Shown piece after piece: positions 1 through 36,240 of a DNA stretch of 64,000 nt. The position numbers were made by a program, and so were the translations under genes. This DNA comes from Isurus oxyrinchus. Its lineage: Eukaryota. The notes below the pieces were generated by a model. It had not been told where the DNA came from and did not search any database. It saw only the letters and a list, made by a program, of their open reading frames with translations. Each line of letters opens with the position of its first letter. Positions within the stretch are counted from its first letter, which is position 1. The stretch lies in assembly GCA_026770705.1 (NCBI GenBank), contig JANJGN010000071.1, positions 2,232,001-2,296,000 of the forward strand, given 5' to 3'.

Positions 1-1475
1 CCCCACTCTCCAAGAACTCGCTTTGGAATCTCCTCCAACATGACACTTTCACTCAGACACCTTCCACAAGGGTCCACTTTCACTATTTCAAACTCTCCTT
101 CCCATGTTCCTGTCCCCTGGATCGCCACGTGCATTCAGCCTTCCTTCCACGCCCTGTCTCTCCAATGCTCAGCCGTGTCAATGGAACACCATGGCTTCAC
201 ATGGCCGTAGTAATGAGTCACCAACCTGTGGTGTCTCCTAGGATCTTCTGGCTTCTCACAAGCCTATTTTGCTTTAGGTCTGTGTCCTGCTGCTTTCTCC
301 CTTTATGTTTCGAGCATTCTTCTGTTCCTCACTCTTAACTTCACTTAACAGGGCCTTTCCCAGATTTGACTAGAAGGTTTTCTTGGGCCCTTTCTCCTGT
401 TCCACTCGATGGTTTTGGCTTCATCTTTACTTTGGGACTGACTATCTGTCCCGCTCCTTTGCTGCTTCTCCTGGCAACTCCTTTCAACAGAACTGAAAGT
501 ACTTTTCTGTTTTTCTTTGTCTCTGTGTGTCCCTCCCTCTGGACCACTGTTACTCGGCAACAGCACAGTTTCTTCTACCTTGTGTTTGTTTTGACTTCCC
601 TTCAAGAGTCATAAAAACTCATTAGATAGGCGGCTTCTTCCAAAGTGAAACCAAAACTCAAGTTCCCCCTTTTCAAAACACCCAAATACAGAAATACAAA
701 CTAAACTTGAACTGAAAGATATACCTTATGCCTAACGCACTCAAATACACAGAGAACTTCCTTAAGCCAACCCCAGTTCCAAAAAATCACATGACACACT
801 TCCCCTCGAGTGATGTCATGCTGCTGTCCCTGAAAGGCATATTACAGCAGTGTTATCACTTGGCAGGTGATGTGTGCCAGGCAGACCAAGTCCATGAGAG
901 AAAGCTGGTCACACGATCATAAAGATTTTTGATTTTTTTTATTTATTATGAGATGTGTGCACTGAATTCAGAAGCAATATGTCCACAAAGACCTTTAGAG
1001 ATTTAAAACAATAAATTAAATATTTGCCATCAAAATAAAAGATTTCAAGCACATACATAAGACTACAATGACTGCTATAATAACTCCTAAAATTCCTAAT
1101 TAACCTGACTCCCAGTTACACTTCCTTTAAGGCAACAGACCAAAAATAGATGTTAGATTTAAAACAAACTCAGCAAGTTAACCCAATGCCCTGGACAATG
1201 GAATTCCAAATGGATTTTACCCAACTTCAGTTCTGTTGGATAGCAGGCTTGTGCACAAACAGGGTCCTGAGGACCATGAGCCAATGTAGAATGAACTTGT
1301 CCACTCCTGTGTCCAGGATTCTCTCCCATCCATTGTGAAACCTTGGGGAGTTCCATGTGTGTCCTGTAGATGGTCCACACTGCAGCCACTGTTCCCAAGT
1401 GATGGAGGGGGCGGATATCAAGTCTAGTGGATCTACAAACCATCCAGAGTTAAATATTGATATTTCTCTCTCCAG

Positions 1476-1862
1476 TTGGACTGTCACAAGAGTGGAAAGG
1501 TGACACTCCACGAGAGGTGACAGCGCAGGAAGGTTCGTGTGTACAGATTCCATGTCATTACAGTTATCCAGCACTTCTAGTAGGGAGAGCACGTGTTGGA
1601 ATCTGGTATGTGAAATGGTACACATGGAATACATGGAATACAAGGTCTAGAGGGACCATAGCATTTCACTCCAAGGATCACAGTCACGAGTTACCACGGT
1701 TCCACCATCGGACCCGGCTGTCTGGAGACCTGAAAGATGGCGGCTGTTCCCTGATTATAAACAACATCAGACGGGAAGATGAAGGATATTATTATTTCAG
1801 AATAGAATTTGACAATGGTCCGAGCCATAACTATTACCCTGTAACCCAGCTTCAGGTTTCTG
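1476..1862 (+). CDS. Siglec-like gene A, V-set Ig exon 1 (V1)
   Basis: AG acceptor ends at 1475, GTAAGT donor at 1863; 387 nt, phase 1-1. GSCVQIPC...GIW...LSGDLKDGGCSLII...EDEGYYYFRIE. Siglec hallmarks: B- and E-strand Cys, extra pre-B Cys, no F-strand Cys, essential F-strand Arg. Confidence 0.93.
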
Positions 1863-2089
1863 GTAAGTGCTGTGTTATAATTACTCAACAATTCACATCC
1901 AACACTCAATGGGAAATAATAGTGTTTGATTTGCTTGTTTTTTGGCCGTGTTAACCAGCGTCACTATTTTTAATGATTTGTCTATTTCTGCTCCCAGATC
2001 CATGAGCTTATTGTGTGTGATTGAATCCACATCATAGCTGTAACGTAAACTGAGCGGAGGGGTGATGACACCTCCCCCCTGAGTGAAGT

Positions 2090-3492
2090 GTCTCCTCCCC
2101 ACTACACCTTCCACCCCTCACACTGTCCGTGTAAACCCCCGTCCCATCTCCAGCCTCTCTTTCCCCTCCAAAGTCATTGAACGTGTTTCCATCTCCCGAA
2201 TCTGTTCCCATCTTTCCCGGAACTCCATGTTTGAATCCCTCCAATCAGGTTCCCACCCCAGCCACTGTGCTGAAACAGCTCTTATCAAGGTCACAAATGG
2301 CATCCTGTGTGACTGTGACAAAGGTCAACTTTCCCTCCTTGTCCTTCTCGATCTGTCTGCAGCCTTTGACATGCTCGACCACACCATCCTCCTCCAACAC
2401 CTCTCCACTGTCGTCCTGCTGGGTGGGACTGCTCTCCCCTGGCTCCATTCTTATCCATCTCATCGTAGCCAGAGAATCACTTGCAATGGCTTTGCAGCAT
2501 CATCTGAACAGTGTTAGTTTTCACCTGTCCACTGAGGATCCCCAGCTCTACCTCACCACCACCTCTCTCGACTCCTCCACTGCTGCTAAATTATCAGGCT
2601 GCTTATCCGACATCCAGTACTGGATGGGCAGAAATTCCCTCCAATTAAATATTGGAAAGACTGAAGCCATTGTCTTCATTCCCCGCTCCAAACTCTGTTC
2701 CCTCGCTACCAACTCCATTCCTCTCCCTGGCAGCTCTCTGAGATTGAAGCCAATCTGTTCACAGCTTTGTTGTCCCATTTGATCCTGAGATGAGCTTCCG
2801 GCCTCATATCTGCGCCCTCACTAACACCGTCTATTTCCACCTCCGTAACATCGCAAGACTTCACCCTGTCTCAGCTCATCTGCTGCTGAAACCCTCATCC
2901 ACGCCTTCATTACCTCCAGACTCGACTGTTCCAACACACGCTCTACACTCCATAAACTTGAGGCCATCCAAAACTGCTGACCACGTCCTTACTCACACCA
3001 AGTCCCATTCCCTTATCACCCGCTCTGCTCGATGACCGAGACTGGCTCCTGGTCAAGCAAAGTCTCAATGTCCAAATTTTCATCTTTGTTTCCTCACTAT
3101 CTCTGTAATCTCCTCGTCCTCCTCCAGTACCTACAACCATCCCATTCTCTGTAACCTCTTCAAGCCTCTGCTGCTTCTCTATATCTGTAAATTCATCCTG
3201 CACAACAAACCTACCAATCTCTGCAACCTCCTCCAGCCACTACAAACCTCTCTATCTCTGCAAACTCCTCCATACCCTACACTCTCCCAATCTCTCTTAA
3301 ATTTTCCAGCCCCTACAACCCTCCCTATCTCTGTAACCTCCTCCAGCCCCTCCAACCCTCTGAGGTCTCTGTGCTCATCCAATTCCAGCCTCTTGACCAT
3401 CCCCCGGTCCCATCACTCCAACATCGGCGGCCGTGCCTTCAGCTGCCTGGGGCCCGAGCTCTGTAATACCCTCCCTCAACCCCTCTCTGTCC

Positions 3493-3720: not shown

Positions 3721-4264
3721 CCTTTGACCCTCAACCCCAGCTTGAGTCTTATTTTTGAGGGAATGTACAACCTCCTTAGATTTCTGACCAAAATGTCATT
3801 TGATTATTTTTATTGAGCGAATGCCAAGCCCCGATACCGAGTGAGAGCCTCCTCATTTGCGGAGTTTAAGGTGATGAGTCAGCACCTTAGTCCGTAGAGG
3901 GGATTCTCCTCGGTAATGTGCAGCCTTGTTTGTGTCTCTCCACAAGCGCATGAGGGGTTTGTACAGAGGCTGCAGTGCTGGAGGGGGTCTGCACAGGGGT
4001 CCTGGCCTGTCCTGAGCCGGTTTTAGCAAGGACCACTCTGGCCTTGGCAGCTGAAAGCAAGCCATTGGACAGACGGGGCCTGTCACAAGGAGCCTGTTAG
4101 TCACTCCCCACCGTGTCTCCTGTGCTCGGATCCAGACCATGTTGGCTGGTGGATCTGGCTCAGGATGGGTCCTCCCCATGGGACCCCCAGATGGAAGGTG
4201 GGTCGAGCGGGTCAGTCACTTGCATGTTTATTCTGCAGCTTTAATATTTTAAGAAGGTAAGATT

Positions 4265-5095
4265 GTAGGAACATAAGAAATAGGAACAGGAGCAGGCCAT
4301 TCGGCCCCTCGAGCCTGCTCTCACTGATCTGGTTGTGGCCTTAACTCCATTTTCCTGCCTGTCTCCCAAACCCTTGACTCCCTTGTCGATCAAAAACCTG
4401 CCTCACTCAGCCTTGAGTCTATTCAATGGCCCAGCCTCCACTGCTCTCTGGGGAAGAGAATTCCACAGGCTAGCGCCCCTCTGAGAGAGGAAATTCCTCC
4501 TCATCTCAGTCTTAAATGGGAGAGCCCTCATTCCGAAACTGTGCTCCCTGGTTCTAGATTCCCCCACGAGGGGGAAACATCCTCCCAGCATCCACCCTGT
4601 CAAGTCCCCTCGGAATCGGATATGTTTCAGTAAGGTCACCCCTCATTCTTCTAAACTCCAATGGATACAGGCCCAACCTGCTCAACATTTCCTCACGGGA
4701 CAAACCCTTTAATCCCAGGAATCAGCCCAGTGAACTTCCTCTGAACTGCCTCCAATGCAGTGTCTATCCCTCCCTAAGTAAGGAGACCAGAACTGTACAC
4801 ACTGCTCCTGATACAATCTCACCCTGTGCAGCTGTTGCAAGACTTCCCTCCTTTTATACTCCATCCCTTTGCAATAAAGGCCAACATTCCACTTGCCTTC
4901 CTCATTCCGTGGTGTTCCTGAATGCTGACTTTCTGTGATTCATATACAAGGACACCCAGATCCCTCTGTACTGCATTCTGCAGCCTCTCTCCATTTAAAT
5001 AATATCCTGTTTTTCTATTCTTCCTGCCAAAATAATTTGTTGCAGTCCTCCTCAGTATTGACCATCCCCCCAATTCAGCCTCATCTGTAAATTTG
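4265..5095 (-). mobile_element. CR1 LINE 3' fragment (duplicate at ~19590-20430)
   Basis: Minus-strand YYLNGERLQ..QRDLGVLV...FKTEMRRNFLSQR...LWNSLPQ. Confidence 0.85.
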
Positions 5096-5150
5096 AGTCT
5101 GGTGGATCCACAAACCATCCAGAGTTAAATATTGAGATTTCTCTCCCCAG

Positions 5151-5519
5151 TTGAACCCTCACAAGAGTGGAAAGGTGACACTCCACGAGAGGTGACAGCG
5201 CAGGAAGGTTCGTGTGTACAGATTCCTTGTCATTACAGTTATCCATCGTGTCTGGAAAACCAACCGCGAGGTGGACTCTGGTTTAATAATGAGAAACAGA
5301 TTCCCTGGGCTCCCATTGCCTTTCACTCCAAGGATCACAGTCACGAGTTACCACGGTTCCACCATCGGACCCAGCTGTCTGGAAACCTGAAAGATGGCGA
5401 CTGTTCCCTGATTATAAACAACATCAGACGGGAAGATGCAGGACCTTATTTTTTCAGAATAGAATTTGACAATGGTCCGAGCCATAACTATTACCCTGTA
5501 ACCCAGCTTCACGTTTCTG
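5151..5519 (+). CDS. Siglec-like gene A, V-set Ig exon 2 (V2)
   Basis: CCCCAG acceptor, GTAAGT donor, 369 nt open, phase 1-1; GSCVQIPCHYSYPSCLEN...PYFFRIEF. Confidence 0.92.
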
Positions 5520-6333
5520 GTAAGTGCTGTGTTATAATTACTCTAACAATTCACATCCAACACTCAATGAGAAATAACGCAAACTGTGACGTTTACATAT
5601 TAACACAAAACACAGCTTATTATAGCACACTGTCTGATTCTCAATAACCTGGTGATAGCTCCCAGTTCAGTCCTAAAGCAATGTCTAATACTCACTTTAA
5701 TATCAATGATTAAATGTATTGACTGTGTCCATCAATGTTATCAGGTTATCCACTCCCATCGATCTCCCTAACCCTGTTTGACAGTCTTACATATCGACAA
5801 AAGAAAGATTCGCATTTCTATAGCGCCTTTCAACACCTCTGTACGTTGCAAATGGTTTCACAACCAATGAAATAATTCTTGAAATGTTGCCCTTGTTGTA
5901 ATATGGGACACACAGCAGCCAATTTATTCACAGGAAGCTCCCAGAAACAGCAATGTGATCAATAACCTGATCATCTGTTTTAGATGCCGGTTCAGTGATT
6001 GGTTCAAATGGATTCTCTCCTGCTGGGAACAGGATAGAATTTAAATCTGGCAGATTTCGGAGAAAGTAACAAGCCAGTGTGTCAGGAACTGTGAGCTGCT
6101 CCCCCACCCTCACCTGGGATTGTCAGTTCAATTGTCTCAAAGTGGAAGTGAATTCATCTGAGAGACAGAAAATCCACTAAGTCTGAAAATAGGAAATTCT
6201 CTCCTGATCATTGTAATCTCTCAGTTCTGATATCATCCTTGTAAAAGTGCTTTCTCTTGTGGGACTGTGGTTTCTATTTGAACTGATGCTTCACGTTATA
6301 TTTCTCTAAAAGGATCCATTCTCTGTCTGTTAG

Positions 6334-6626
6334 ATTTCACAGATAAACCCACGATATTCCCTGCTGAAATTATCGCAGGAAAGCGTGTGGATGTAAGCTG
6401 CACCTTCAACACAACGTGCAATGGAACAGCAGCACCTGTCTTAACCTGGGACACTCCCACTGACCTGGATCAGTCTCAAACACTGTAACTCAGCATGGTG
6501 TCACTCTGATCTATACTTCTGTTCTGACCCTGATCCCATCACTCAAACACCACGGACACACTCTCAGCTGCAGAGTGAGATATCCATCTGTTTCATCGGA
6601 GCGGACCCTTGTACTAACTGTACAAG
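6334..6626 (+). pseudogene. Gene A first C2-set exon with 4-bp frameshifting deletion
   Basis: 293 nt versus 297 nt in paralogue 21666-21962 (ACTGACCTGG vs ACTGACGTACCTGG); premature TAA at 6486-6488; splice sites intact. Confidence 0.85.
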
Positions 6627-6949
6627 GTAAGTACCGACACCTTTCATTCTACATCAGCACTCCCTCAGCGCTGACCCTCTGACAGTGCAGCCCGTTCTCA
6701 GTATCTACATTCTCAGACCTCTCAAAGTGCTTCACAGTCGATAGAAGTTAACTGATCTTTATTTGATTATTGCTGAATGAAGAGACAATCTGCCTAAACT
6801 TTACAGCTCGCACACATTATTTTCCATGGCAACACCGCCTCCAATCAGAGACCACTTGCCAATCAATCAGCACTCTCTTCCCATTAAATATAAATTGTTG
6901 TTCACTTCCTGTTGGGAAACCAGTGATCTGTCATGTTGAGTCCTGCCCT

Positions 6950-7102
6950 GACATCTGAATATCACAATGAACAGAACAAGTTCCAACAATGAGCTGTGGT
7001 TGGGGATTCCTCACGTTACATCCAGGGACACTGGAGACTATCAGTGTGTGGCAGAGAATGAACATGGAGCGTTGGAGGGTTTCATAACCATCACTGTGGA
7101 AC
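6950..7102 (+). pseudogene. Gene A remnant (3' half) of a second C2-set exon
   Basis: MNRTSSNNELWLGIPHVTSRDTGDYQCVAENEHGALEGFITITVE|GTGAGT nearly matches the 3' half of 26429-26710; 5' half and acceptor replaced by unrelated repeat-like sequence. Confidence 0.85.
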
Positions 7103-8220
7103 GTGAGTGTACACAGACTTCAACAGCTCTCTCAGATTCAAACACTACACAAACACATACAATTATACAAACCTAAATAGACACGTGCAGACACACAATC
7201 CCACATGTATGAGCACACAAAAGGACACACTCACAAACAAAGACACTAACAGATTCTCCCCCGTGGGTTACCTGACCTCCCTCAGTGCTGCACCGGAGAG
7301 TTGACATGGATTCTGGGAATTGTGTTCCCTTTCAAGTTTATGGAAGAACGCGGAAATTGCAAAGTCTATTAGACACCCAGATGCACAGAAATTCTCACAG
7401 ATACTCTCTGCCTCTCTAACTCTCTATCCTCCTTTAAAAAGCTTCCTGAAACCTAACCCTTTGACCAGTCACCTGTCCCAACTCCTCCTTATGTAATTCT
7501 GTGTGAAATGTTGTTTGAGTATCTGACAGTAAGAGAGAGATGGAGAGGTTTACGAAGAAATTTCTGTTGGTGAAAAGCTTACATCATGTTCTCACCTTTC
7601 CAGAGCCCATTTTGCACATGATGTCCAATGTCCAAGTTCATAATGGGGATTGCCTATGTAAACGTCACGCTGCAGTTACACTCTCCCACCAGTGGTGGCA
7701 CGGTAGCACTTAACCCTTGCATCTCCCAGCTTTTCAAGCAATTTCACTTCCCAATTTGCTACTATTCACCTCAACCACTCCCTGTGGGAGCGAGTTCCAC
7801 ATTCTCCCCTCTCTCTGGGTAAAGATTGGAACTGTTTATTAAGTGGGGGGTGTAAGTCCGTGAGGGAGTCCATCTCGATCCTGCCCGATTCACACACGCG
7901 TCCGAGATGGATTTCCACCCTGCACTAAACGTTTCCAGAATTTTCTACAGCACAATCCTGTACACAGCGATGGAGAGAAACATTGGACAGGGAGTCCAAC
8001 AGCACAATGATCCATTCTCACCAATGTTCCACGCTAAGGGGAAAGTTCCGATTGTCCACTCTTAGAGTGTTTACAATGAAAACATTCATTCCACATTGAA
8101 TCCCAGTGGATGGGTCAATATTACAGCAAATGTTGCAGTGATATGAAGCTTGATTGTTCAGCCAGAGTGAGAGATTGAAAGCGGAGAGTCAGTGATGATT
8201 TTTTTCTGTGTGTTCTCTAG

Positions 8221-8360
8221 ACAGTGGAGGAGAGATTCTGCACGTGATCCTGATCCTGGGAATACGAGCTGTGATATTCCTTGTGGCTGTGGTTATCACT
8301 ATCGCTGGAGTCTGTGTCTGGGAGAGACAAACAGTGAAAGGAAGTCGACAGACTGTTTAA
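8221..8360 (+). CDS. Gene A transmembrane exon with intramembrane Arg and short tail (activating-type receptor)
   Basis: Polypyrimidine tract + TAG acceptor at 8220. Read in phase 1: SGGEILHVILILGIRAVIFLVAVVITIAGVCVWERQTVKGSRQTV*. Arg codon 8265-8267, no Tyr motif. Not in the ORF track in this frame. Exon 3' end uncertain. Confidence 0.78.
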
Positions 8361-11590: not shown

Positions 11591-11630
11591 ATGATCGGGA
11601 AATCTTACTTCCTCCTGTCACTTCTCCAAG
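11591..11630 (+). CDS. Siglec-like gene B signal-peptide exon
   Basis: MIGKSYFLLSLLQ(G)|GTAATA, phase 1; acceptor TTTCAG at 11548; joins V1 in frame (VGLSQEW). Confidence 0.85.
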
Positions 11631-14806: not shown

Positions 14807-16291
14807 TGTTGTGTTTTTATAATGATATAAAGGCACCAGCCACTGATACGGAATTGGGTAAATACATTGTGGGTTCAGTTATTTGGAACAAGGACATGAG
14901 AACAGATATACAAGGATAGAAAGCTGGGAGACACCTGCAGCCAAACTGTGTGAGCTGTGTTCTGCTCACAGGCCAAAGTGAAACTTGGACTGGATGGTGT
15001 TATCATCCCAGCTGATGTTACTACTGGGCAAGTCAGATCCCAGGGTGGAGCTCAGCTTGATAGGTCCTAACTTTTATTTTTTATTTAGGAATGTGGAGTG
15101 CGGCTACTGAACAGAGTCACAGGAGTCATCTGATGAACGTCTAACAAAAGAATAAAACATTTATTAAACTAGGAAAGACAAACTATATGACATTACTCAT
15201 TCACCCAGATCTATACCTTTACAGATACATAAGTAGAACACAAGTTACAATAACTATCTTATATTCTCATGTTCACACTAAGTACACAGTCCGTGTAAAC
15301 CAATAGACGACCTGTGGTCAGGGACACAACATTCTGAAGCAAGTGGCAGAGCCCACTTGAAACAAATTCTATGTCTCATCTGTCCCCAGACGCTTGTTGC
15401 ACTGTGAGCCCACCAGTCTCACTGAAAAGCTTCTTTCATATGAGAGTTTCCAATCTCCACTCTCCAAGAACTCACTTTGGAATCTCCTCCAACATGACAC
15501 TTTCACTCAGACACCTTCCACAAGGGTCCACTTTCACTATTTCAAACTCTCCTTCCCATGTTCCTGCCCCCTGGATCGCCACGTGCATTCAGCCTTCCTT
15601 CCACGCCCTGTCTCTCCAATGCTCAGCCGTGTCAATGGAACACCATGGCTTCACATGGCCGTAGTAATGAGTCACCAACCTGTGGTGTCTCCTAGGATCT
15701 TCTGGCTTCTCACAAGCCTATTTTGCTTTAGGCCTGTGTCCTGCTGCTTTCTCCCTTTATGCTTGAAGCCTTCTTCTGCTCCTCACTCTTAACTTCACTT
15801 AACAGGGCCTTTTCCAGATTTGACTAGAAGGTTTTCTTGGGCCCTTTCTCCTGTTCCACTCGATGGTTTTGGCTTCTTCTTTACTTTGGGACTGACTATC
15901 TGTCCCGCTCCTTTGCTGCTTCTCCTGGCAACTCCTTTCAACAGGACTGAAAGTACTTTTCTGTTTTTCTCGGTCTCTGTGGGTCCTTCCCTCTGGATCA
16001 CTGTTGCTAGGCAACAGCACAGTTTATTCTACATTGTGTTTGTTTTGACTTCCCTTCAACAGTCATAAAACCTCAATGGAATGCTGGCTTCTTTTTAACT
16101 CAAGTTCCCCCTTTTCTCAACACCCAAATACAGAAATACAAACTAAACTTGAACTTAAAGATAGACCTTTTGCCTAACACACACAAATACACATAGAACT
16201 TACTTAAGCGAACACCAGTTCCTAAAAATCACATGACAAACGTCCCCTCGAGTGATGTCATGCTGCTGTCCCTGAAAGGCATATTACAACA
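14807..16291 (-). mobile_element. 5' LTR (TGTTG...CAACA) probably interrupted by a nested ~1.2-kb LTR-like insert (~14998-16238)
   Basis: Inverted termini adjacent to the PBS; internal segment begins TGTTATC; boundaries approximate, no TSD recognised. Confidence 0.5.
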
Positions 16292-16911
16292 GTGTTATCA
16301 CTTGGCAGGTGATGTGTGCCAGGCAGACCAAGTCCCTGAGAGAAACCTGGTCACACTATCATAATGATTTTGCAATTTGTATTTATTATGAGATGTGTGC
16401 ACTTAATTCAGAAGCACTAACTCCACCAATACCTTCAGAGATTTAAAACAATAAATTAACATATTTGTCATCAAAATAAAGGATTTCAAGCACATACGTA
16501 ACTACAAGACTGCTATCATAACTCCTAAAATTCCTAATTAACCTGACTCCCAGTTACAGTCCCTTTAAGGCAACAGACCAAAAATAGATGTTAGATTTAA
16601 TAAAAATCAGCAAGTTAACCCAATGCCCCGGACAGTGGAATTCCAAATGCATTGTCCCAACTTCAGTTCTGTTGGAGAACAGGCTTCTGCACAAACAGGG
16701 TCCTGAGGACCATGAACCAATGTAGAATGAACTTTTCCGCTTTTGTGTCCAGGATTCTCTTCCATCTGGTGTGATACCTTGTGGAGTTCATTGTGTGTCC
16801 TGTAGATGGTCCACACTGCAGCCACTGTGCCCGAGTGATGGAGGGGGTGGATATCGAGTCTAGTGGATCAACAAAACATCCAGAGTTAAATATTGATATT
16901 TCTCTCCCCAG

Positions 16912-17289
16912 TTGGATTGTCACAAGAGTGGAAAGGTGACACTCCACGAGAGGTGACAGCGCAGGAAGGTTCGTGTGTACAGATTCCATGTCATTACAGT
17001 TATCCATCAGATTTGGTAAAGAAACCACAGGTCGGAATCTGGAAAATGAGAAGATACATACAGAACAAATGGTCTAAATGGTCTATAGCCTTTCACTCCA
17101 AGGGTCACAGTCGCGAGTTATCACAGTTCCACCATCGGACCCGGCTGTCTGGAGACCTGAAAGATGGCGACTGTTCCCTGATTATAAACAACATCAGACG
17201 GGAAGATGCAGGACCTTATTTTTTCACGATAAAATTTGGCAATGGTCCGAGCCATAACGTTTCCCCTGAAACCCAGCTTCACGTTTCTG
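16912..17289 (+). CDS. Gene B V-set exon 1 (essential Arg replaced by Thr)
   Basis: 378 nt open, AG/GTAAGT, phase 1-1; ...PYFFTIKFGNGPSHNVSPETQL. Confidence 0.92.
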
Positions 17290-17519
17290 GTAAGTTCTGT
17301 GTTATAATTACTCACCAATTCACATCCAACACTCAATGGGAAATAATAGTGTTTGATTTGCTTGTTTTTTGGCTGTGTTAACCAGCGTCACTATTTTTAA
17401 TGATTTGTCTATTTCTGCTCCCAGATCCATGAGCTTATTGTGTGTGATTGAATCCACATTATAGCTGTAACGTAAACCGAGCTGAGGGGTGATGACACCT
17501 CCCCCCTGAGTGAAGTGTC

Positions 17520-19515
17520 TCCTCCCCACTACACCTTCCACCCCTCACACTGTCCGTGTAAACCCCCGTCCCATCTCCAGCCTCTCTTTCCCCTCCAAAG
17601 TCCTTGAACGTGTTTCCATCTCCCGAATCCGGTTCCATCTTTCCCGGAACTCCATGTTTGAATCCCTCCAATCAGGTTCCCACCCCAGCCACTGTGCTGA
17701 AACAGCTCTTATCAAGGTCACAAATGGCATCCTGTGTGACTGTGACAAAGGTCAACTTTCCCTCCTCGTCCTTCTCGATCTGTCTGCAGCCTTTGACACG
17801 CTCGACCACACCATCCTCCTCCAACCCCTCTCCACTGTCGTCCAGCTGGGTGGGACTGCTCTCCCCTGGATGCATTCTTATCCATCTCATCGTAGCCAGA
17901 GAATCACTTGCAATGGCTTTGCAGCATCATCTGAACAGTATTAGTTTTCACCTGTCCACTGAGGATCCCCAGCTCTACCTCACCACCACCTCTCTCGACT
18001 CCTCCACTGCTGCTAAATTATCGGGCTGCTTATCCGACATCCAGTACTGGATGGGCAGAAATTCCCTCCAATTAAATATTGGAAAGACTGAAGCCATTGT
18101 CTTCATTCCCCGCTCCAAACTCTGTTCCCTCGCTACCAACTCCATTCCTCTCCCTGGCAGCTCTCTGAGATTGAAGCCAATCTGTTCACAGCTTTGTTGT
18201 CCCATTTGATCCTGAGATGAGCTTCCGGCCTCATATCTGCGCCCTCACTAACACCGTCTATTTCCACCTCCATAACGTCGTACGACTTCACCCTGTCTCA
18301 GCTCATCTGCTGCTGAAACCCTCATCCACGCCTTCATTACCTCCAGACTCGACTGTTCCAACACATGCTCTACACTCCATAAACTTGAGGCCATCCAAAA
18401 CTGCTGACCACGTCCTTACTCACACCAAGTCCCGTTCCCTTATCACCCGCTCTGCTCGATGACCGAGACTGGCTCCTGGTCAAGCAAAGTCTCAATGTCC
18501 AAATTTTTGAATATTTTTCCTCCCTATTACAGTAATCTCCTCCTTTATCTTCATCCACGGCAACATTCCCTATCGCAGGAGCCTCCTCCAGTCCCTACAA
18601 CCCTCTCTATCTCAGGAGCCTCCTCCAGTCCCTACAACCCTCCCTATCTCAGGAGCCTCCTCCAGTCCCTACAACCCTCCCTATCTCAGGAGACTCCTCC
18701 AGTCCCTACAACCCTCCTATCTCAGTACTCTCTTCCAATCCCGAAAACCATTCCTATCACTGCAAACTCCTCCGGACCCAACACCCCTCCCTATCTCTTT
18801 AACCTCCTCAAGCCCCGATAACCCTCGCGATATTTGTAGCCTCCTCCAGTCCTAACAACCTCCCCTATCTCTGCAACCTCCTCCAGACCGAATACCTCTC
18901 CCTATCTCTGTAAGCTGGTCCATCTCTTACAACCCTTCATATTTCTGTAACCTCCTCCAGCCCACTACAACCCTCCCTATCTCTGTAACCTCCTCCAGTC
19001 CCTAAGAGTTTCCTTCATCTCTGTAACTCCTCCAGCCATTATAACCCTCCCTATCTCTGTAGCCTCCCTCAGCCCCAGCCACACTCCATATCTATGTAAC
19101 CTCGTCCTGCCCCTACAACCCTCCCTATCTCTGTAACCCCATCCTGCCCCAAAAACTCCCCCATCTCTGTAAACTCCTCCAGTCCCTGCAACCTTCCCTA
19201 CCTCTGAAACCTCCACCAGCCTTTCCAACCCTCCCTACCTCTGCAATCCGTCCAGCCCCTACAACTCTTCCTATCCCTGTAAACTCCTCCTGCCCCTAAA
19301 ACCCTCTCTGCCCTTGCAGCCTCCTCCAGTCCCTACACGTTCCCCATCGCCATAAACTCCTCAAATCCCTATAGCCCTCCCTATCTCTGCAACCTCCTCC
19401 AGGTCCTACCACCCTCCCTATCTGCGTAATGTCCTCCAGTATCTACAGCCCTCCCTATCTCTGTTACCTCCTCCAGCCCCCACAAACCTCCCTATCTGTG
19501 TAACCTCCTCCAGCC
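17520..19515 (+). mobile_element. L2 LINE fragment (duplicate) plus expanded minisatellite
   Basis: Same RT motifs as 2090-3060; CTCCAGCCCCTACAACCCTCCCTATCTCTGTAACCTC-type repeats. Confidence 0.82.
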
Positions 19516-20485
19516 CCAGATGGAAGGTGGGTCGAGCGGGTCAGTCACTTGCATGTTTATTCTGCAGCTTTAATATTTTAAGAAGGTAAGAATGTAGGAA
19601 CATAAGAAATAGGGACAGGAGCAGGCCATTCGGCCCCTCGAGCCTGCTCTCACTGATCTGGTGGTGTCCTTAACTCCATTTTCCTGCCTGTCCCCCAAAC
19701 CCTTGACTCCCTTGTCGATCAAAAACCTGCCTCACTCAGCCTTGAGTCTATTCAATGGCCCAGCCTCCACTGCTCTCTGGGGAAGAGAATTCCACAGGCT
19801 AGCGCCCCTCTGAGAGAGGAAATTCCTCCTCATCTCAGTCTTAGATGGGAGAGCCCTCATTCCGAAACTGTGCTCCCTGGTTCTAGATTCCCCCACGAGG
19901 GGGAAACATCCTCCCAGCATCCACCCTGTCAAGCCCCCTCGGAATCGGATATGTTTCAATAAGGTCACCCCTCATTCTTCTAAACTCCAATGGATACAGG
20001 CCCAACCTGCTCAACATTTCCTCACAGGACAAACCCTTTAATCCCAGGAATCAGCCCAGTGAACCTCCTCTGAACTGCCTCCAATGCAACTCTATCCCTC
20101 CCTAAGTAAGGAGACCAGAACTGTACACACTGCTCCTGATACAATCTCACCAACGCCCTGTGCAGCTGCTGCAAGACTTCCCTCCTTTTATACCCCATCC
20201 CTTTGCAATAAAGGCCAACATTCCACTTGCCTTCCTCATTCCGTGGTGTTCCTGAATGCTGACTTTCTGTGATTCATGTACAAGGACACCCAGATCCCTC
20301 TGTACTGCATTCTGCAGCCTGTCTCCATTTAAATAATATCCTGTTTTTCTATTCTTCCTGCCAAAATAATTTGTTGCCATTCTCCTCAGTATTGACCATC
20401 CCCCCAATTCAGCCTCATCTGTAAATTTTGAGTCTAGTGGATCCACAAACCATCCAGAGTTAAATATTGAGATTTCTCTCCCCAG

Positions 20486-20854
20486 CTGAACCCTCACAAG
20501 AGTGGAAAGGTGACACTCCACGAGAGGTGACAGCTCAGGAAGGATCGTGTGTACAGATTCCATGTCATTACAGTAATCCATCGTGTCTGGAAAACCAACC
20601 GCGAGGTGGAGTCTGGTTTAATAATGAGAAACAGATTCCCTGGGCTCCCATTGCCTTTCACTCCAAGGATCACAGTCACGAGTTACCACGGTTTCACCAT
20701 CGGACCCGGCTGTCTGGAGACCTGAAAGATGGCGACTGTTCCCTGATTATAAACAACATCAGACGGGAAAATGCAGGACCTTATTTTTTCAGAATAGAAT
20801 TTGACAATGGTCCGAGCCATAACTATTACCCTGTAACCCAGCTTCACGTTTCTG
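20486..20854 (+). CDS. Gene B V-set exon 2 (Arg retained)
   Basis: 369 nt open, AG/GTAAGT; ...PYFFRIEFDNGPSHNYYPV. Confidence 0.92.
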
Positions 20855-21665
20855 GTAAGTGCTGTGTTATAATTACTCACCAATTCACATTCAACACTCA
20901 ATGGGAAATAACACAAACTGTGACGTTTACATATTAACACAAAACACAGCTTATTATAAAAGACTGTCTGATTCTCAATAACCTGGTGATAGCTTCCAGT
21001 TCAGTCCTAAAACAACCTCTAATACTCACTTTAATATCAATGATTAAATGTATTGACTGTGTCCATCAATGTTATCAGGTTATCCACTTACATCAATCTC
21101 CCTAATCCTGTTTAAAATTCTTACATATCAACAAAAGAAAGATTTGCATTTCTATAGCGCCTTTCACCACCTCTGGACGTCGCAAATGGATTCACAACCA
21201 TTGAAATAATTCTTGAAATGTAGCCCTTGTTGTAATATAGGAAACACAGCAGCCAATATGTGCACAGGAAGCTCCCAGAAACAGCAATGTGATCAATAAC
21301 CTGTCATCTGCTTTAGATGCCGGTTCAGTGATTGGTTCAAATGGATTCTCTCCTGCTGGGAACTGGATAGAATTTAAATTGGCAGATTTCGGAGAAAGTA
21401 ACAAGCCAGTGTGTCAGGAACTGTGAGCTGCTCCCCCGCCCTCACCCGGGATTGTCAATTCAATTGTCTCAAAGTGGAAGTGAATTCATCTGAGTGACAG
21501 AAACTCCACTAAGTCTGAAAATAGGAAAGTCTCTCCTGATCGTTGTAACCTCTCAGTTCTGATATCATCCTTGTAAAAGTGCTTTTTCTTGTGGGACTGT
21601 GATTTCTATTTGAACTGATGCTTCACGTTATATTTCTCTAAAAGGATCCATTCTCTGTCTGTTAG

Positions 21666-21962
21666 ATTTCACAGATAAACCCACGATATTCCCTGCTGAA
21701 ATTATTGCAGGAAAGCGTGTGGATGTAAGCTGCACCTTCAACACAACGTGCAATGGAACAGCAGCACCTGTCTTAACCTGGGACACTCCCACTGACGTAC
21801 CTGGATCCGTTTCAAACACTGTAACTCAGCATGGTGTCACTCTGACCTATACTTCTGTTCTGACCCTGATCCCATCACTCAAACACCACGGACACAATCT
21901 CAGCTGCAGAGTTAGATATCCATCCGTTTCATCGGAGCGGACCCTCGTATTAACTGTACAAG
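21666..21962 (+). CDS. Gene B C2-set exon 1 (Siglec domain-2 type)
   Basis: 297 nt; DFTDKPTIFPAEIIAGKRVDVSCTFNTTCNGTAAPVLTW...LSCRV; carries the BC-loop Cys used for the Siglec V-C2 interdomain disulfide. Confidence 0.92.
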
Positions 21963-22329
21963 GTAAGTACTGAAACCCTTGATTCTATATTAGCTGTAAT
22001 AGGTTACAATGTGCAGAGCAAGATCCCACAAACATCACTGGGTTGAAGACAAAACAGGTCCTTTTTTATTAGTGATATTGACCAGGGAGAGCTCTTCCTG
22101 TATTGAGCCTTGGGATTGTTTGTGCCTACCTGATAGGGCAGAGGGGGCCAAGGTTGAACTTAAAAGACAATATAGGATAATATAAATATTGTCTTCATTG
22201 ATGTCAAAGATTTTGGGGGAGTTGTAGTATAAAAGTTTAATATTAGCAATGTAAATAGATAGTATTTATCATTAATTACTCAAGGTTACATGAGAATAGA
22301 ACACGGAGAGAGATAGTTCTATAGATACC

Positions 22330-26428: not shown

Positions 26429-26710
26429 ATGGACCACAGAATCTCTCAATTAATTCTCTTGATATGATTAACGCTTCATCGGTCAATATAATTGAGGGGA
26501 ATTCTGCAGTGATAATCTGCTCTGTCGAGAGCTTCCCAGCTTCTAACCTGACGTGGCGACATCTTAATGTCCCAATGAACAGAACAAGTTCCAACAATGA
26601 GCTGTGGTTGGTGATTCCTCACGTTACATCCAGGGACACTGGAGACTATCAGTGTGTGGCAGAGAATGAACATGGAGCAGTGGAGGGATTCATAACCATC
26701 ACTGTGGAAT
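26429..26710 (+). CDS. Gene B C2-set exon 2
   Basis: 282 nt, TTTTAG/GTGAGT; DGPQNLS...EGNSAVIICSVESFPASNLTW...DTGDYQCVAENEHG. Confidence 0.92.
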
Positions 26711-28586: not shown

Positions 28587-28862
28587 ATCCCCCACAGGAG
28601 ACGATGGTGTCCATCAGCAGATCCTCAGGTGGGATAAGAGAGGGAAGCAATATCACATTAACCTGCTCCAGTGAAAGTGTCCCACCGATATCTCATTACA
28701 CCTGGTTCAGGATCGAGGGGAACACCAGCACCCAGTTAAACACAAGTAGCCGCACTCTCTCCTTCACTCCTGTAACACGGGAGAATGATGCAGGTTTCTA
28801 CTGCACAGCGAGGAACCCAATGGGTAACAGCACCTCCAACATCACCCACCTGAACGTACAAT
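28587..28862 (+). CDS. Gene B C2-set exon 3
   Basis: 276 nt, TTCCAG/GTAAGC; YPPQETMVSI...EGSNITLTCSSESVPPISHYTWF...DAGFYCTARNPMG (CD22/sialoadhesin-type repeat). Confidence 0.92.
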
Positions 28863-29892: not shown

Positions 29893-30186
29893 ATAAGCCG
29901 GAGATTTCCCAGCAGTCGGAGTGCACTCGGAGGTCAGAGGGGGTCACCTGCGTCTGTGTGGCCAACTCCAACCCACCCGGAGACCTCACCTGGCACCTGC
30001 CCAGTGCCAACATCAGTGGTAACCAAAAAAACGGAGGTTTTGTGTCGTGGCAGGTCAGAGATGGGCATCTGGTGACTGGTTCCCTCACCCTGATGAGACC
30101 CCAGGATGAGGGGGGAGTGATGGCATCCTGCTCGGTTCAAAACCCACACGGGGAAGCCATGTTCAAGATGTATCTGTGGGTCAAAG
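29893..30186 (+). CDS. Gene B membrane-proximal C2-set exon 4
   Basis: 294 nt; YKPEISQQSECTRRSEGVTCVCVANSNPPGDLTW...SCSVQNPHG; C-x8-CxC pattern of MAG domain 5 and the last domain of Siglec-5/10/11. Confidence 0.9.
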
Positions 30187-31070: not shown

Positions 31071-31167
31071 GTAGAGACTCCAGTAAATGGACAGTAGGAT
31101 TGTTCACGGCTGGGATCATGTTGAGTGTTTTCCTGGCTGGAATCTTCATCTTCATCTGTGTGAGAAA
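31071..31167 (+). CDS. Gene B transmembrane exon (uncharged)
   Basis: TTACAG/GTAAGT, 97 nt, phase 1-2; GRDSSKWTVGLFTAGIMLSVFLAGIFIFICVRK. Confidence 0.9.
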
Positions 31168-31890
31168 GTAAGTCTGAAGATTTAACTTGATTTTAATATA
31201 AACATTTGTTTAGGATTAATTGGACAGTTTTTACAAAGGGCCAGCACAGGCACGATGGGCTGAGTGGCTTCCTCCCGAGCTGTGAGATTTTAAATTCTTT
31301 CATCGAATGTGACTGTCACTGGCGTGGCCAATACTAATTGCCCATTCCCTAAATGCCCCTTGAGAATGAGGTGGTGAGCTGCCTTCTTGACCCGCTGCAG
31401 TCCATGTGGTGTAGGTACACCCACAGTGCTGTTAGAGAGGGAGCTCCAGGATTTTGACCCAGCGACAGTGAAGGAACGGTGATATATTTCCAAGTCAGGA
31501 TGGTGAGTGACTTGGAGGGGAACTTCCAGGTGGTGGTGTTCCCATGTGTCTGCTGCCCTTGTCCTTCTAGATGGTAGAGGTCGTGGGTTTGGAAGGTGCT
31601 GTTGAAGGAGCCTTGCTGAGTTGCTGCAGTGCATCTTGTATATGTTACACACACTGCTGCCACTGTGTGTTCGTTGTGGAGGGAGTGAATGTTTAATGTG
31701 GTGGATGGGGTGTAGATCAATCGAGCTGCTTTGTCCTGGATGGTGTCGAGATTCTAGATTCTGTGCTTTGTGCAGAAGTGATTTAAAGAGACAGTCCAGT
31801 CATTGGTGTAAGGTTACAGTGGGCTCTGTGTCTGTGCTGCACTGACTCTTTGCTATGTGATAACCACAGTGTGATATTGTGTTATTGCAG

Positions 31891-31972
31891 GAGAAAGACA
31901 GCGATGGAGGAGAGAGTTTCAGGGACCAGTGACATTGCATTGACCCCCAGTTCACTCTCTGTGAAGCACCAG
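31891..31972 (+). CDS. Gene B cytoplasmic exon 1a
   Basis: TTGCAG/GTACAG, 82 nt, phase 2-0; RKTAMEERVSGTSDIALTPSSLSVKHQ. Confidence 0.85.
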
Positions 31973-33024
31973 GTACAGGAGCTGTTTACACTCACTCCAA
32001 AGCTTCAATCTCAGTGTGTAGACAACACATGTCCCAGATTCCCTGCCCAGTTACCCACTGATTTGTACCTGTGGAGTCAGCAATGGTTCAGTATCATGCT
32101 GTCTCTCTGTTATGACACAGCAACTGGTAAAGGCTGTTGTTTAAAAACCCAGAGGGAAACTTTAAACAACTGTCATAACCTATACTTCCCAGTGGAATGT
32201 TTGAGATGCATCTCTAAATTCAGGAATAAGACCACCAGTTCTGGAGATGGGTTTATATCAAACTAAATGAGACATATATTAATTTACACAAGTTAAACAT
32301 ATGCACATGGTTACAAACTAGTATTATCATAACTTTTTAACAAATTCTCAAACTAATCTCCTCTAAGACAACCCATAGTCTTTAAGCAGATTCCAGGCAT
32401 TTTCACCTCACAAGTTCCAGTTTCTCTCTCTATCTCAACCTCCCTTTCTTTCTCTCTCTTTCTCTCTCTCTCATCCTCTCTCTGATTACAAGGTGCATGT
32501 TAATGAGCTTCACACCAGAAACTTGAGTGAAGAATCCAAGCCGTCACTCACCAGAGCCATTACCGAGGGAGTGCGAGACTGACAGCGGGTCAGTACTGAG
32601 GGAGTGCTGTACTGTTGGAGGGTCAGTACTGAGGGAGAGTTGCACCGTCGGAGGGTCAGTACTGAGGAAGCGCTGTACTGTCGGAGGGTCAGTACTGAGG
32701 GAGCGCTGCACCATCGGAGGGTCAGTACTGAGGGAGCGCTGCACTGTCAGAGGGTCAGTACTGAGGTTTTTGCTGCGCTGTCGGAGGGTCAGTACTGAGG
32801 GAGTGCGAGACTGACAGAGGGTCACTATTGAGGATGTGCTGCACTGTTGGAGGGTCAGTCCTGAGGGAGCACTGCACTGCCATAGGTGGTTTCTTTCATA
32901 AGACATGGGAGAGAGAGTTAAACCCACTGAGACACGACTGACATTAACGAAGCTGCACAATAATTTAACCCTATCAGTGCCAGTAAATGATGTGAGGATG
33001 TCTTCTGTTTCCATTTCTCTGTAG

Positions 33025-33273
33025 GGTAAACAGAACGTGCTGATTACTGAGCCCCGGAACACAACCAGAGACACAACTAGCGAGGGGGAGACCCCAACTC
33101 CCCGGGGTCTCTCTGAAGGTGCAGTGGGAGGCGATGCTGGACTTGGGAACCCCGGCAAACCTGAAGAGTTTCTCTACGCCAATCCCCAAGTTTTGAGGGT
33201 GTCCAGTGGTGATGGGTCTGTCCACAGGGAAGAGGAGACGGAATACGCACAGATCAGGTTTGAGCATAACTGA
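33025..33273 (+). CDS. Gene B terminal cytoplasmic exon 2a (degenerate ITIM FLYANP + ITSM TEYAQI)
   Basis: CTGTAG acceptor, 249 nt to TGA; AATAAA at 33798-33803. Confidence 0.85.
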   Translation, partial: GKQNVLITEPRNTTRDTTSEGETPTPRGLSEGAVGGDAGLGNPGKPEEFLYANPQVLRVSSGDGSVHREEETEYAQIRFEHN

Positions 33274-34420
33274 ATGAGAAATGGGGACTGGGAGTGAGGA
33301 GGAGTGGGCGTGGGGGTAGGGATTGAGATTCCTGGGAACAGGAAACAACCCACTGGGGGAGAGGGGGAGAGAGGGAGGAAGGGATGGAATTGGGCTACGG
33401 TTGGTGTGGTTTGGAATGAAATGCTTCTCCAGAGAGGACTGGATGCTGAGCCATTGGGGAGTGAGATTCACTGTCTCTCTCTCTCTCTCTCTCTTCCTCT
33501 CTGTCTCTCTCTTTCTTTCTGTGTCAGTCTCTCATTCTCTCTCTCTTGCTCCTCCTTTAAGATGACCGTTAATGACTGACTTTGATGACTCAGCTGTTGG
33601 TCTCCTGTCCCTAATATCTCCTCATGTGCCTCAGAGTCAGGTGAAATGTGACTAACAATCCCCGGATGAGCCTTGGGACATTTTGCTACATTGAAGGTGC
33701 TATATAAATGCAAGTTGTTGCAGTAACTCTGATCTGCTTCTATTAACAATGGAACCACAGAGGTTCCTTCGACAGGGCGTGTGTGCAGCAGGGTCACAAT
33801 AAATACATTGAGCTGTGAGATTTTTCATTCTTACATCGAATGTGGCTGTCACTGGTGATGTCCGCATTGATGCCAATCTCTAACTGCCCTTGAGAAGGTG
33901 GTGGTGAGCTGCCTTCTTGACCCGCTACAGTGCATGTGGTGTAGGTACACCCACAGTGCTGTTAGAGAGGGAATTCCTGGATTTTGACCCAGCGACAGTG
34001 AAGGAACGGTGATATATTTCCAAGTCAGGATGGTGAGTGACTTGGAGGGGAACTTCCAGGTGGTGGTGTTCCCATGTGTCTGCTGTCCTTGTCCTTCTAG
34101 ATGGTAGAGGTCGCGTATTTGGAAGGTGCTGTTGAAGGAGCCTTGCTGAGTTGCTGCAGTGCATCTTGTAGATGGTACACACACTGCTGCCACTGTGTGT
34201 TCATGGTGGAGGGAGTGAATGTTTAATGTGGTGGATGTGGTATGGATCAATCGGGCTGCTTTGTCCTGGATGGTGTCGAGCGTCTTGATTCTGTGCTTTG
34301 TGCAGAGGTGATTTAAAGAGAGAGTCCAGTCATTGGTGTAAGGTTACAGTGGGCTCTGTGTCTGTGCTGCACTGACTCTCTGCTATATGATAACCACAGT
34401 GTGATATTTTGTGATTGCAG

Positions 34421-34502
34421 GAGAAAGACAGCGATGGAGGAGAGAGTTTCAGGGACCAGTGACATTGCATTGACCCCCAGTCCACTCCCTGTGAAACACC
34501 AG
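34421..34502 (+). CDS. Duplicated cytoplasmic exon 1b
   Basis: Near-identical to 31891-31972 with the same phases; RKTAMEERVSGTSDIALTPSPLPVKHQ. Confidence 0.8.
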
Positions 34503-35991
34503 GTACAGGAGCTGTTTACACTCACTCCAAAGCTTCAATCTCAGTGTGTAGACATCATATGTCCCAGATTCCCAGCCCAGTTACCCACTGATTTGTACCT
34601 GTGGAGTCAGCAATGGTTCAGTATCATGCTGTCTCTCTGTTATGACACAGCAACTGGTAAAGGCTGTTGTTTAAAATCCCAGAGGGAAACTTTAAACAAC
34701 TGTCGTAACCTATATTTCCCAGTGAAATGTTTGAGATGCAGCTCTAAATTCAGGAATAAGACCACCAGTTCTCAAGATGATTTTATATCAATCTAAATGA
34801 GACATTTATTAATTTTCACAAGTTAAACATATGCACATGGCTACAAACTAGTATTATCATAACTTTATAACAAATTTTCAAACTTATCTCCTCCAAGACA
34901 ACCCATAGACTTTAAGCAGACACCAGGCAAAGCATTTTCACCTCACAAATTCCAAATGAGGCTCCTTTCACTTTGGTTCCTTTGCAGACAAGTGTAGGAT
35001 TACAGCTGCTTTGCTGTTACAAGCCTCTGCTCTGCACACACAAAACTGCACAAGTTATACCCAGCTCTTGAGTGTGAAGAAGATGGAGATTGATGGGCTC
35101 TTGATTGGTAAAGGGATCAATGGTTAGGAGAGAAGGTGGGAGAATGGGGTTTGTGAAACATATCAGCCATGTATGAATGGTGGAGCAGACTCGATGGACC
35201 GAATGGTCTAATTTCTCCTCCTATGTCTTATGGTCTTATGGCTTCTGTTTGAAGGTAAATTCGCAATGTATCATCAGGACCTTTGAACTCCATCTCTTCC
35301 AATCCCCTTTCATCGTATCAATTTTATTAGTAATATAAACGTTGATTGGTTTAAGATTTCAATCTCAGACTTTGAATGTTTTATTTAAAAATACAAATTA
35401 CCACTTTACCTCTTTGTTTACATCTCAAAACTACTATACATCAAAGCACACAGACTGGCTGTCTTTAATCCAATTTAAATACACACAGACACACACACAG
35501 ACTAAACCTCTGTTTAAAAAGACAGTTTGCATTTATAATACAAACATTAATAGATTAATAACACTCTGTCTCTATCCCTCCTCTATCTCTCTCTCTCATC
35601 CTCTCTCTGATTACAAGGTTCATGTTATTGATCCTCACACCAGGCACCTGAGTGCAGAATCCAAGCCGTCACTCACCAGAGCCATTACCGGGGGAGTGGG
35701 GGACTGACAGCGGGTCAGTACTGAAGGAGTGCTGCACTGTCGGAGGGTCAGTACTGAGGGAGTGCTGCACTGACAGAGGGTCAGTACTGAGGGAGCGCTG
35801 TATTGTCGGAGGGTCAGCACTGAGGGAGTGCTGCACTGTTGGAGGGTCAGTACTGAGGGAGTGCTGCACTGCCATAGGTGGTGCCTTTTATCCGATAGGA
35901 GAGAGAGAATTAAACAAGTCTGCACAATAATTTAACCCTATCAGTACCAGTAAATGATGTGAGGATGTCTTCTGTTTCCATTTCTCTGTAG

Positions 35992-36240
35992 GATGAACAG
36001 AACGTGCTGATTACTGAGCCCCGGAACACAACCAGAGACACAACTAGTGAGGGGGAGACCCCAGCTCCCCGGGATCTCTCTGAAGGTCCAGTGGGAGGCG
36101 ATGTTGGACATGGGAACTCAGACAAACCTCACGAGCTTCTCTACGCCAACATCAACTTTTCAAAGCTGCCCGGCGGTGACAGGACTGTGCACAGGAGCGA
36201 GGACACGGAATACGCACAGATCAGGTTCCAGAAAAACTGA
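35992..36240 (+). CDS. Duplicated terminal cytoplasmic exon 2b (ITIM LLYANI + ITSM TEYAQI)
   Basis: CTGTAG acceptor, 249 nt to TGA; ITIM/ITSM pair as in CD33-related Siglec tails. Confidence 0.85.
   Translation, partial: DEQNVLITEPRNTTRDTTSEGETPAPRDLSEGPVGGDVGHGNSDKPHELLYANINFSKLPGGDRTVHRSEDTEYAQIRFQKN

Follow-up and report, generated by a model that had tools for sequence, protein, structure and literature searches.

A position-dependent cysteine of inner V-set domains in Siglec-like receptors from sharks and rays, and its probable role in a V–V disulfide

Introduction

What becomes of the free cysteine of a Siglec V-set domain when the exon that encodes it is duplicated? In MAG, a bond between C37 of the first immunoglobulin (Ig) domain and C165 of the second is visible in crystal structures (PMC5150538, excerpt). 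Duplication of the V exon orphans the free cysteine and thereby provides a natural test of the role of this interdomain disulfide. The question is raised by a stretch of the genome of the shark Isurus oxyrinchus (assembly GCA_026770705.1, contig JANJGN010000071.1, positions 2,232,001 to 2,296,000 of the forward strand), whose 64,000 nucleotides are referred to here as the window. It contains two related Siglec-like genes, a and b, both on the + strand and each with two V exons (V1 and V2). A sequence-only reading of the window had proposed that V2, after exon duplication, acquired a BC-loop cysteine able to accept a disulfide from V1, that the V exons are used in tandem rather than as mutually exclusive alternatives, and that tandem V-sets are rare among Siglecs.

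Here we show that this cysteine, located seven residues after the B-strand cysteine (+7), tracks the position of the domain in the receptor beyond chance. Since this position rule is accompanied by joints between V exons in spliced contigs and by a Siglec-like predicted arrangement of V1 and V2, a chain of V–V disulfides is likely. In our estimate there is about a three-in-four chance that the +7 cysteine of an inner V domain is the disulfide acceptor for the free cysteine in the V domain ahead of it.

Results

Both V2 exons in the window carry the cysteine. In gene a the V2 exon (5151..5519, +), which begins with EPS in place of GLS, encodes the donor cysteine of the GSC motif (5213-5215), the B-strand cysteine (5228-5230) and, at the end of the motif CHYSYPSC (5228-5251), a BC-loop cysteine (TGT, 5249..5251, +) that is the likely acceptor for the free cysteine of V1. 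The V2 exon of gene b (20486..20854, +) has the same arrangement, with the donor cysteine at 20548-20550, the B-strand cysteine at 20563-20565 and the BC-loop TGT at 20584-20586, within CHYSNPSC (20563-20586). Both V2 domains keep the F-strand arginine. The V1 exons also encode the donor cysteine and have other residues at +7: leucine (1574-1576) in gene a (exon 1476..1862, +; donor 1538-1540; F-strand arginine kept) and aspartate (17010-17012) in gene b (exon 16912..17289, +; donor 16974-16976; F-strand arginine replaced by threonine). In the first C2 exon of both genes the partner cysteine lies at +6, within SCTFNTTC (6417-6419 in the gene a exon, 6334..6626, and 21749-21751 in the intact gene b exon, 21666..21962, both +). 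These cysteines are thus as first described. The copy originally flagged (5228) belongs to gene a, which is frameshifted, and the copy at 20584 to gene b, which is intact.

To place these two genes in context, we mapped 1,464,000 bases of this genome (1.464 Mb) in six stretches picked around V2 matches. The +7 cysteine was found in 52/52 exons that follow another V exon, compared with 7/44 that follow a leader, and in 0/4 V exons at the start of a unit (seven unscorable exons were dropped, and a stricter parse leaves one of the 52 unscorable). None of the 27 units with several V exons opens with a cysteine-type V (25 lack the residue and two are unscorable). The same distribution was seen among 96 homologues from sharks and rays, retrieved with a cysteine-type V as query and scored after ten partial domains had been dropped: 0/76 domains after a leader, 38/49 after a V domain and 0/4 after a C2 domain have the cysteine. 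First domains without a recognisable leader have it in one case out of 12, in a model whose beginning is of the inner type. Another 42 proteins, for the most part from rays, came from a second search, and none of their 40 scorable first domains carries the residue. The donor cysteine is kept in all 27 scored first V domains of homologues that are followed by another V. Fisher tests gave p values of about 1e-22 for the homologues and 1e-19 for the genome, which are overstated because paralogues are non-independent.

Inner domains of the cysteine type occur in Lamniformes, Carcharhiniformes and Orectolobiformes, in Pristiophorus and in the rays Mobula and Hypanus. The residue is therefore common to four shark orders and two rays and older than genes a and b, and the proposal that V2 gained it after the duplication seen here, as a recent change in this gene, had to be abandoned.

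Stacked V-sets themselves proved to be widespread. The description of Siglec-12 as the only Siglec with two V-sets (PMC7876704, excerpt) does not extend to gene models, and tandem V-sets are not rare: units in this genome have up to 10 V exons and, among the best 150 matches of a distant search over cluster representatives, 24 gene models are Siglec-like proteins with stacked V-sets. Ten of these are named, from a monkey (Siglec-12), a lynx, a tree shrew, frogs and toads, a gecko and two bony fish. The +7 cysteine is present in none of the 28 downstream V domains of the non-elasmobranch tandem proteins in this set; one of them, in Scleropages, has a cysteine at +4. The acceptor thus appears, so far and among the matches listed, to be an elasmobranch feature. 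The upstream V domain keeps its free cysteine in 21/28 cases. Loss of the donor as a mirror solution was considered and is not established (7/28 versus 2/24, p 0.15).

The cysteines of gene b suggest how such a bond might be made. The donor cysteine (GSC) and the C2 acceptor (SCTFNTTC) align with the cysteine pair of CD33. Domains 1 to 3 contain ten cysteines, an even number, at residues 35, 40, 101, 161, 166, 173, 224, 285, 291 and 343. Intradomain bonds would join Cys40-101, 166-224 and 285-343, Cys161-291 would form the usual V–C2 bond, and pairing of Cys35 with Cys173 as a new V–V bond would leave zero free thiols in the three domains. An intradomain partner for the +7 cysteine was rejected: of the four V2 cysteines only that of GSC is left, and the known geometry of the Ig fold would place it and the end of the BC loop at opposite domain ends. 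BC-loop residues are exposed in this fold. We propose that the free cysteine of V1 donates and the +7 cysteine of the inner V accepts, which would fasten V1-V2(-Vn)-C2 end to end in the way that V-C2 is fastened in ordinary Siglecs. Each added inner V would supply one acceptor and one donor, and the inner V exon would then act as a self-stacking module, acceptor on top and donor below, whose repetition could extend a rigid stalk and leave V1 to diversify at its tip. If this is correct, bonding each V domain to its predecessor would make the receptor a stiff, elongated rod.

Structure prediction was carried out on homologues as proxies, namely the whole of P0015 (predicted template modelling score, pTM, 0.51) and V1-V2 of P0013 (pTM 0.61). 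The V model superimposed on domain 1 (D1) of sialoadhesin with Z 17.4 and a root-mean-square deviation (rmsd) of 1.9 over 115 aligned residues. The V2-C2 model matched Siglec D1-D2 pairs with rmsd 3.2-5.1 over 194-211 residues. Over both domains, the V1-V2 model was closest to MAG Ig1-Ig2 (Z 17.6, rmsd 5.0, 194 residues aligned), followed by Siglec-10 (rmsd 5.3-5.9) and CD33 (6.7-7.1); JAML (9.2) and PD-L1, CAR and antibody fragments (11.5-12.9) were further away. A Foldseek search with the three-domain model returned nothing on the V1-V2 arrangement.

An exposed BC-loop cysteine could instead bond to another chain, so that receptors would dimerise through their inner V domains while the free cysteine of V1 likewise pairs between chains or stays free. 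The single-V genes that do have a cysteine-type V (7/44) and the unpaired-looking upstream cysteine kept in 21/28 distant cases are compatible with such a bond. However, dimerisation leaves unexplained why the residue occurs in 0/116 first domains of homologues and in 0/4 domains after C2, where no donor precedes; moreover, the end of the V2 BC loop is modelled as facing V1, as in Siglec D1-D2. We therefore regard an interchain bond as improbable.

It is also conceivable that the cysteine is a passenger, with a single origin in some ancestral inner exon and later inheritance free of selection on any bond. In this genome the inner exons are close to identical (92% mean identity), linked silent changes next to the codon accompany it, and paralogues do not count as independent observations. 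Against this, the cysteine is retained across the four shark orders and two rays in domains only about 50% identical, where neighbouring loop residues change. Exchange of framework between V1 and V2 likewise spares the +7 site. In V1/V2 pairs from five paralogous genes, only 10-18 of 366 nucleotides differ, and all five have CAT (His) in V1 versus TGT (Cys) in V2, with the GL (V1) versus EP (V2) exon start also kept; one pair, at C71:2137059/2139072 of genome G000, has no protein differences beyond these three residues. All 35 distinct inner exons have TGT, whereas first exons vary at this position (Y, D, H, L, R). Simple inheritance of a neutral residue is thus an unlikely account of the pattern.

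When the +7 column was left out of a 129-domain tree, the cysteine-type domains came out scattered, requiring at least 10 changes, of which well-supported branches force three. This tree came from a quick search that left 56/126 inner branches open, and it is compatible with one origin or several. Since the cysteine-bearing domains are scattered, the comparison suggests that position in the receptor, more than framework ancestry, governs where the residue is found, a pattern that fits exchange of frameworks within lineages with the cysteine staying at the inner position.

Tandem use of the V exons is supported by contigs from public sequencing runs, guessed to be RNA, which we aligned at 88% likeness; runs X1, X2 and X3 represent one sample. 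Leader-to-V joints occur in 4/4 runs and V-to-C2 joints in 3/4, with GT-AG ends. In run X1, three contigs place the final 11 nucleotides of a V exon ahead of the EPS-type V start at 20485. The EPS start is confined to inner exons (29/29), where it takes the place of the signal peptide end. In run X3 the end of a V exon is joined to a GLS-type V start on a paralogue. Public gene models of the homologues also join V domains. V-to-V splicing in tandem is thus observed at the level of the family and is compatible with minor skipping. Of the junction evidence looked for, V-to-V joints were found, and the exact V1b-to-V2b joint is not among the joints listed. There is one leader per gene: similarity and a scan of both V1-V2 introns for hydrophobic ATG exons revealed no second leader in gene a or b, and a separate leader for V2 was rejected. 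The preference for tandem over mutually exclusive use is thus supported. Although all V exons are in phase 1-1, so that skipping would keep the frame, and minor forms beyond the listed joints are possible, the idea that V exons are used singly, with the cysteine serving some other role in V2-only products, is very hard to reconcile with the V-to-V joints, with public gene models that predict joined V domains and with an inner-exon-specific EPS start, seen in run X1, that replaces the signal peptide end.

Several observations weigh against the proposed V–V disulfide. The bond itself is one that we infer. Eleven of the 49 homologue domains that follow a V lack the +7 cysteine; three of these sit in one long, probably fused gene model, four in two ray proteins with a CC'-loop cysteine instead, and the others comprise one with an FG-loop cysteine, one with a cysteine near the D strand and two without a substitute (the loop names being our own assignment). 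Seven single-V genes in this genome place a cysteine-type V directly after the leader. The acceptor lies at +7 in V and at +6 in C2. The models are modest (pTM 0.51 and 0.61), with a predicted local distance difference test (pLDDT) near or under 50 in the linker, and the match to Siglec D1-D2 is poorer for V1-V2 than for V2-C2; given this low-confidence linker and a predictor that had seen Siglec structures, the V1-V2 model lends weak support. The RNA evidence consists of 11-letter overhangs in one sample at 88% likeness and applies to the family rather than to a specific gene. Finally, the distant tandem-V proteins retain the donor in most cases and have no +7 acceptor outside elasmobranchs.

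Among the exceptions, the ray proteins P0012 (Mobula) and P0014 (Hypanus) have the CC'-loop cysteine in place of the BC-loop cysteine in domains 2 and 4, in 4/4 cases; V2 of monkey Siglec-12 (P0202) also has a CC'-loop cysteine. The seven genes with leader and cysteine-type V comprise three with a stop in the V exon, three with a broken or unparsed C2 and one with an intact core and a fifth cysteine in its V. The idea that such genes break more often was dropped, since the leader-V-C2 core is intact in 1/7 of them versus 15/42 of those starting without the cysteine, which is no clear difference.

Gene b has the sole leader inside the window, its coding part MIGKSYFLLSLLQ at 11591..11630 (+). 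Downstream of the first C2 exon lie three further Ig exons (26429-26710, 28587-28862 and 29893-30186), a transmembrane exon (31071-31167), a cytoplasmic exon (31891-31972) and a tyrosine-motif exon (33025-33273), all on the + strand. The reading frame is open throughout and encodes 787 residues of the immunoreceptor tyrosine-based inhibitory motif (ITIM) type, with the motif TEYAQI. Duplicate cytoplasmic and ITIM exons (LLYANI, TEYAQI) at 34421..36240 (+), 3' of the stop, are a possible alternative 3' end. Copies of the tyrosine-motif exon are found at 33025-33273 and 35992-36240, and one neighbouring unit has four copies of the exon pair. The V2 of gene b shows two private changes at otherwise conserved sites, with Tyr replaced by Asn before the BC loop and Asp by Asn in the D-x-G motif (~20770).

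The leader of gene a lies ~3.5 kb upstream of the window start. Its first C2 exon has 293 nucleotides, 4 fewer than the 297 of intact copies; the frame is lost past ~6464, after the cysteine motif, and runs into a stop. Because of this frameshift gene a has probably become a pseudogene or been truncated, although the shift may stem from an assembly error. The 3' half of the second C2 exon survives as a remnant (6950..7104, +), and the transmembrane exon (8221..8359, +), with an arginine within the helix and a short tail, would be of the activating type. Genes a and b share blocks of 91.5% (3-3360 and 15457-18789) and 95.9% identity (4185-6658 and 19514-21994), which take in introns and retroelement fragments. 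The window has a paired-receptor layout, the arginine and short tail at 8221-8359 standing beside ITIM-type tails at 31071-36240. A V exon of another Siglec-like subfamily at ~47890-48190 (+), with ~30% identity to V2 and 77% to the start of P0016, seems out of frame near the F strand. Carcharodon (up to 97%) and Cetorhinus supply the nearest named proteins, which points to a lamniform shark genome.

Outer and inner V domains differ markedly. The essential F-strand arginine is present in V1a, V2a and V2b, whereas V1b, which forms the outer domain of intact gene b, has threonine instead. Across the mapped region the near-identical inner domains have it in 47/47, whereas first domains of multi-V units are 54% identical in the BC-C-C' region and 13/22 lack it. 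In homologues from other species the arginine is kept in 26/27 such first domains, so that its loss here is a local trait. Outer V domains, including that at 16912-17289, are hypervariable, with a C-C' region rich in Trp, Arg and Lys. Diversifying selection on V1 was not retained as an established reading, since an uncorrected ratio of non-synonymous to synonymous differences (pN/pS) of 1.08 in the BC-C-C' region versus 0.76 in inner domains does not demonstrate it.

The family is large. A search of the assembly with V2 gave 1064 candidates, and the 150 of these that were scored are all at least 93% identical. Exact patterns identify at least 243 cysteine-type V exons and at least 249 leader exons, numbers that haplotype duplicates may inflate. 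The Siglec-like cluster is spread over contigs C52, C71, C121, C150, C189 and others of genome G000, and many units are broken. Of 55 V-containing units mapped, 28 have one V exon, 17 two, seven three, two seven and one ten; ten- and seven-V units lie at C52:2271678-2301088 (-) and C52:1861954-1893645 (+), with V exons spaced ~2.0-2.3 kb apart. An arginine-type transmembrane exon is present in 20/55 units and a tyrosine-motif exon in 19/55, and no unit (0/55) has both.

Discussion

Elasmobranchs appear to have evolved the disulfide acceptor anew in a second kind of domain, a step with no counterpart in other vertebrates. A single His/Cys swap in otherwise near-identical domains makes the role of the bond directly testable. 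More tentatively, and with somewhat less than even odds, the family as a whole may represent a self-stacking Siglec V module that evolved in sharks and rays: exon duplication would yield a covalently locked, multivalent sialic-acid-binding rod whose length can be adjusted from 2 to 10 V domains, with a hypervariable outer V that has often lost sialic-acid binding, across hundreds of genes that pair activating with inhibitory receptors. The V–V arrangement based on the +7 cysteine seems not to be described in the literature found. We found nothing on shark Siglec clusters or on this cysteine, although whale shark gene-family tables or subscription papers could mention an expansion, and a search for the unpaired cysteine of short CD33 gave no relevant match.

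The assignment to the Siglecs is based on several features. Alignment to chains of Siglec-8, -5, -7 and CD33 shows a V-set with B- and E-strand cysteines, as for an intra-sheet bond, and no F-strand cysteine, and C2-set domains, a single transmembrane helix and tyrosine motifs (gene b) or a charged transmembrane residue (the arginine of gene a) are all present. In the PDB, CD33-related Siglecs and MAG match best by sequence, and their scores lie close together. Identity to monkey Siglec-12 (P0202) is ~30%, and names like 'lectin 12' in databases are assigned automatically.

The shark domains resemble the D1-D2 pair of solved Siglecs (MAG with C37-C165, CD33, Siglec-5 and Siglec-10) in the free cysteine five residues ahead of the B-strand cysteine, the B- and E-strand cysteines, the F-strand arginine of three of the window's four V domains and the C2 BC-loop cysteine at +6. 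They differ in that a putative acceptor is also found in a V-set, at +7, and that the V–V link would be repeated, whereas the listed solved Siglecs have one V followed by C2. Primate Siglec-12 (Siglec-XII) is comparable in its two N-terminal V-sets and in the loss of the arginine from the outer V. In contrast, V2 of monkey P0202 lacks the BC-loop cysteine, shark units have 2-10 V exons, and shark inner domains keep the arginine throughout. Siglec-5 and Siglec-14, described as paired receptors (PMC13358205, excerpt), provide a parallel for the organization of the locus, in that an ITIM-type gene and a gene with a charged transmembrane residue carry almost the same ectodomain exons; in the shark, this arrangement is found not as one pair but in hundreds of copies.
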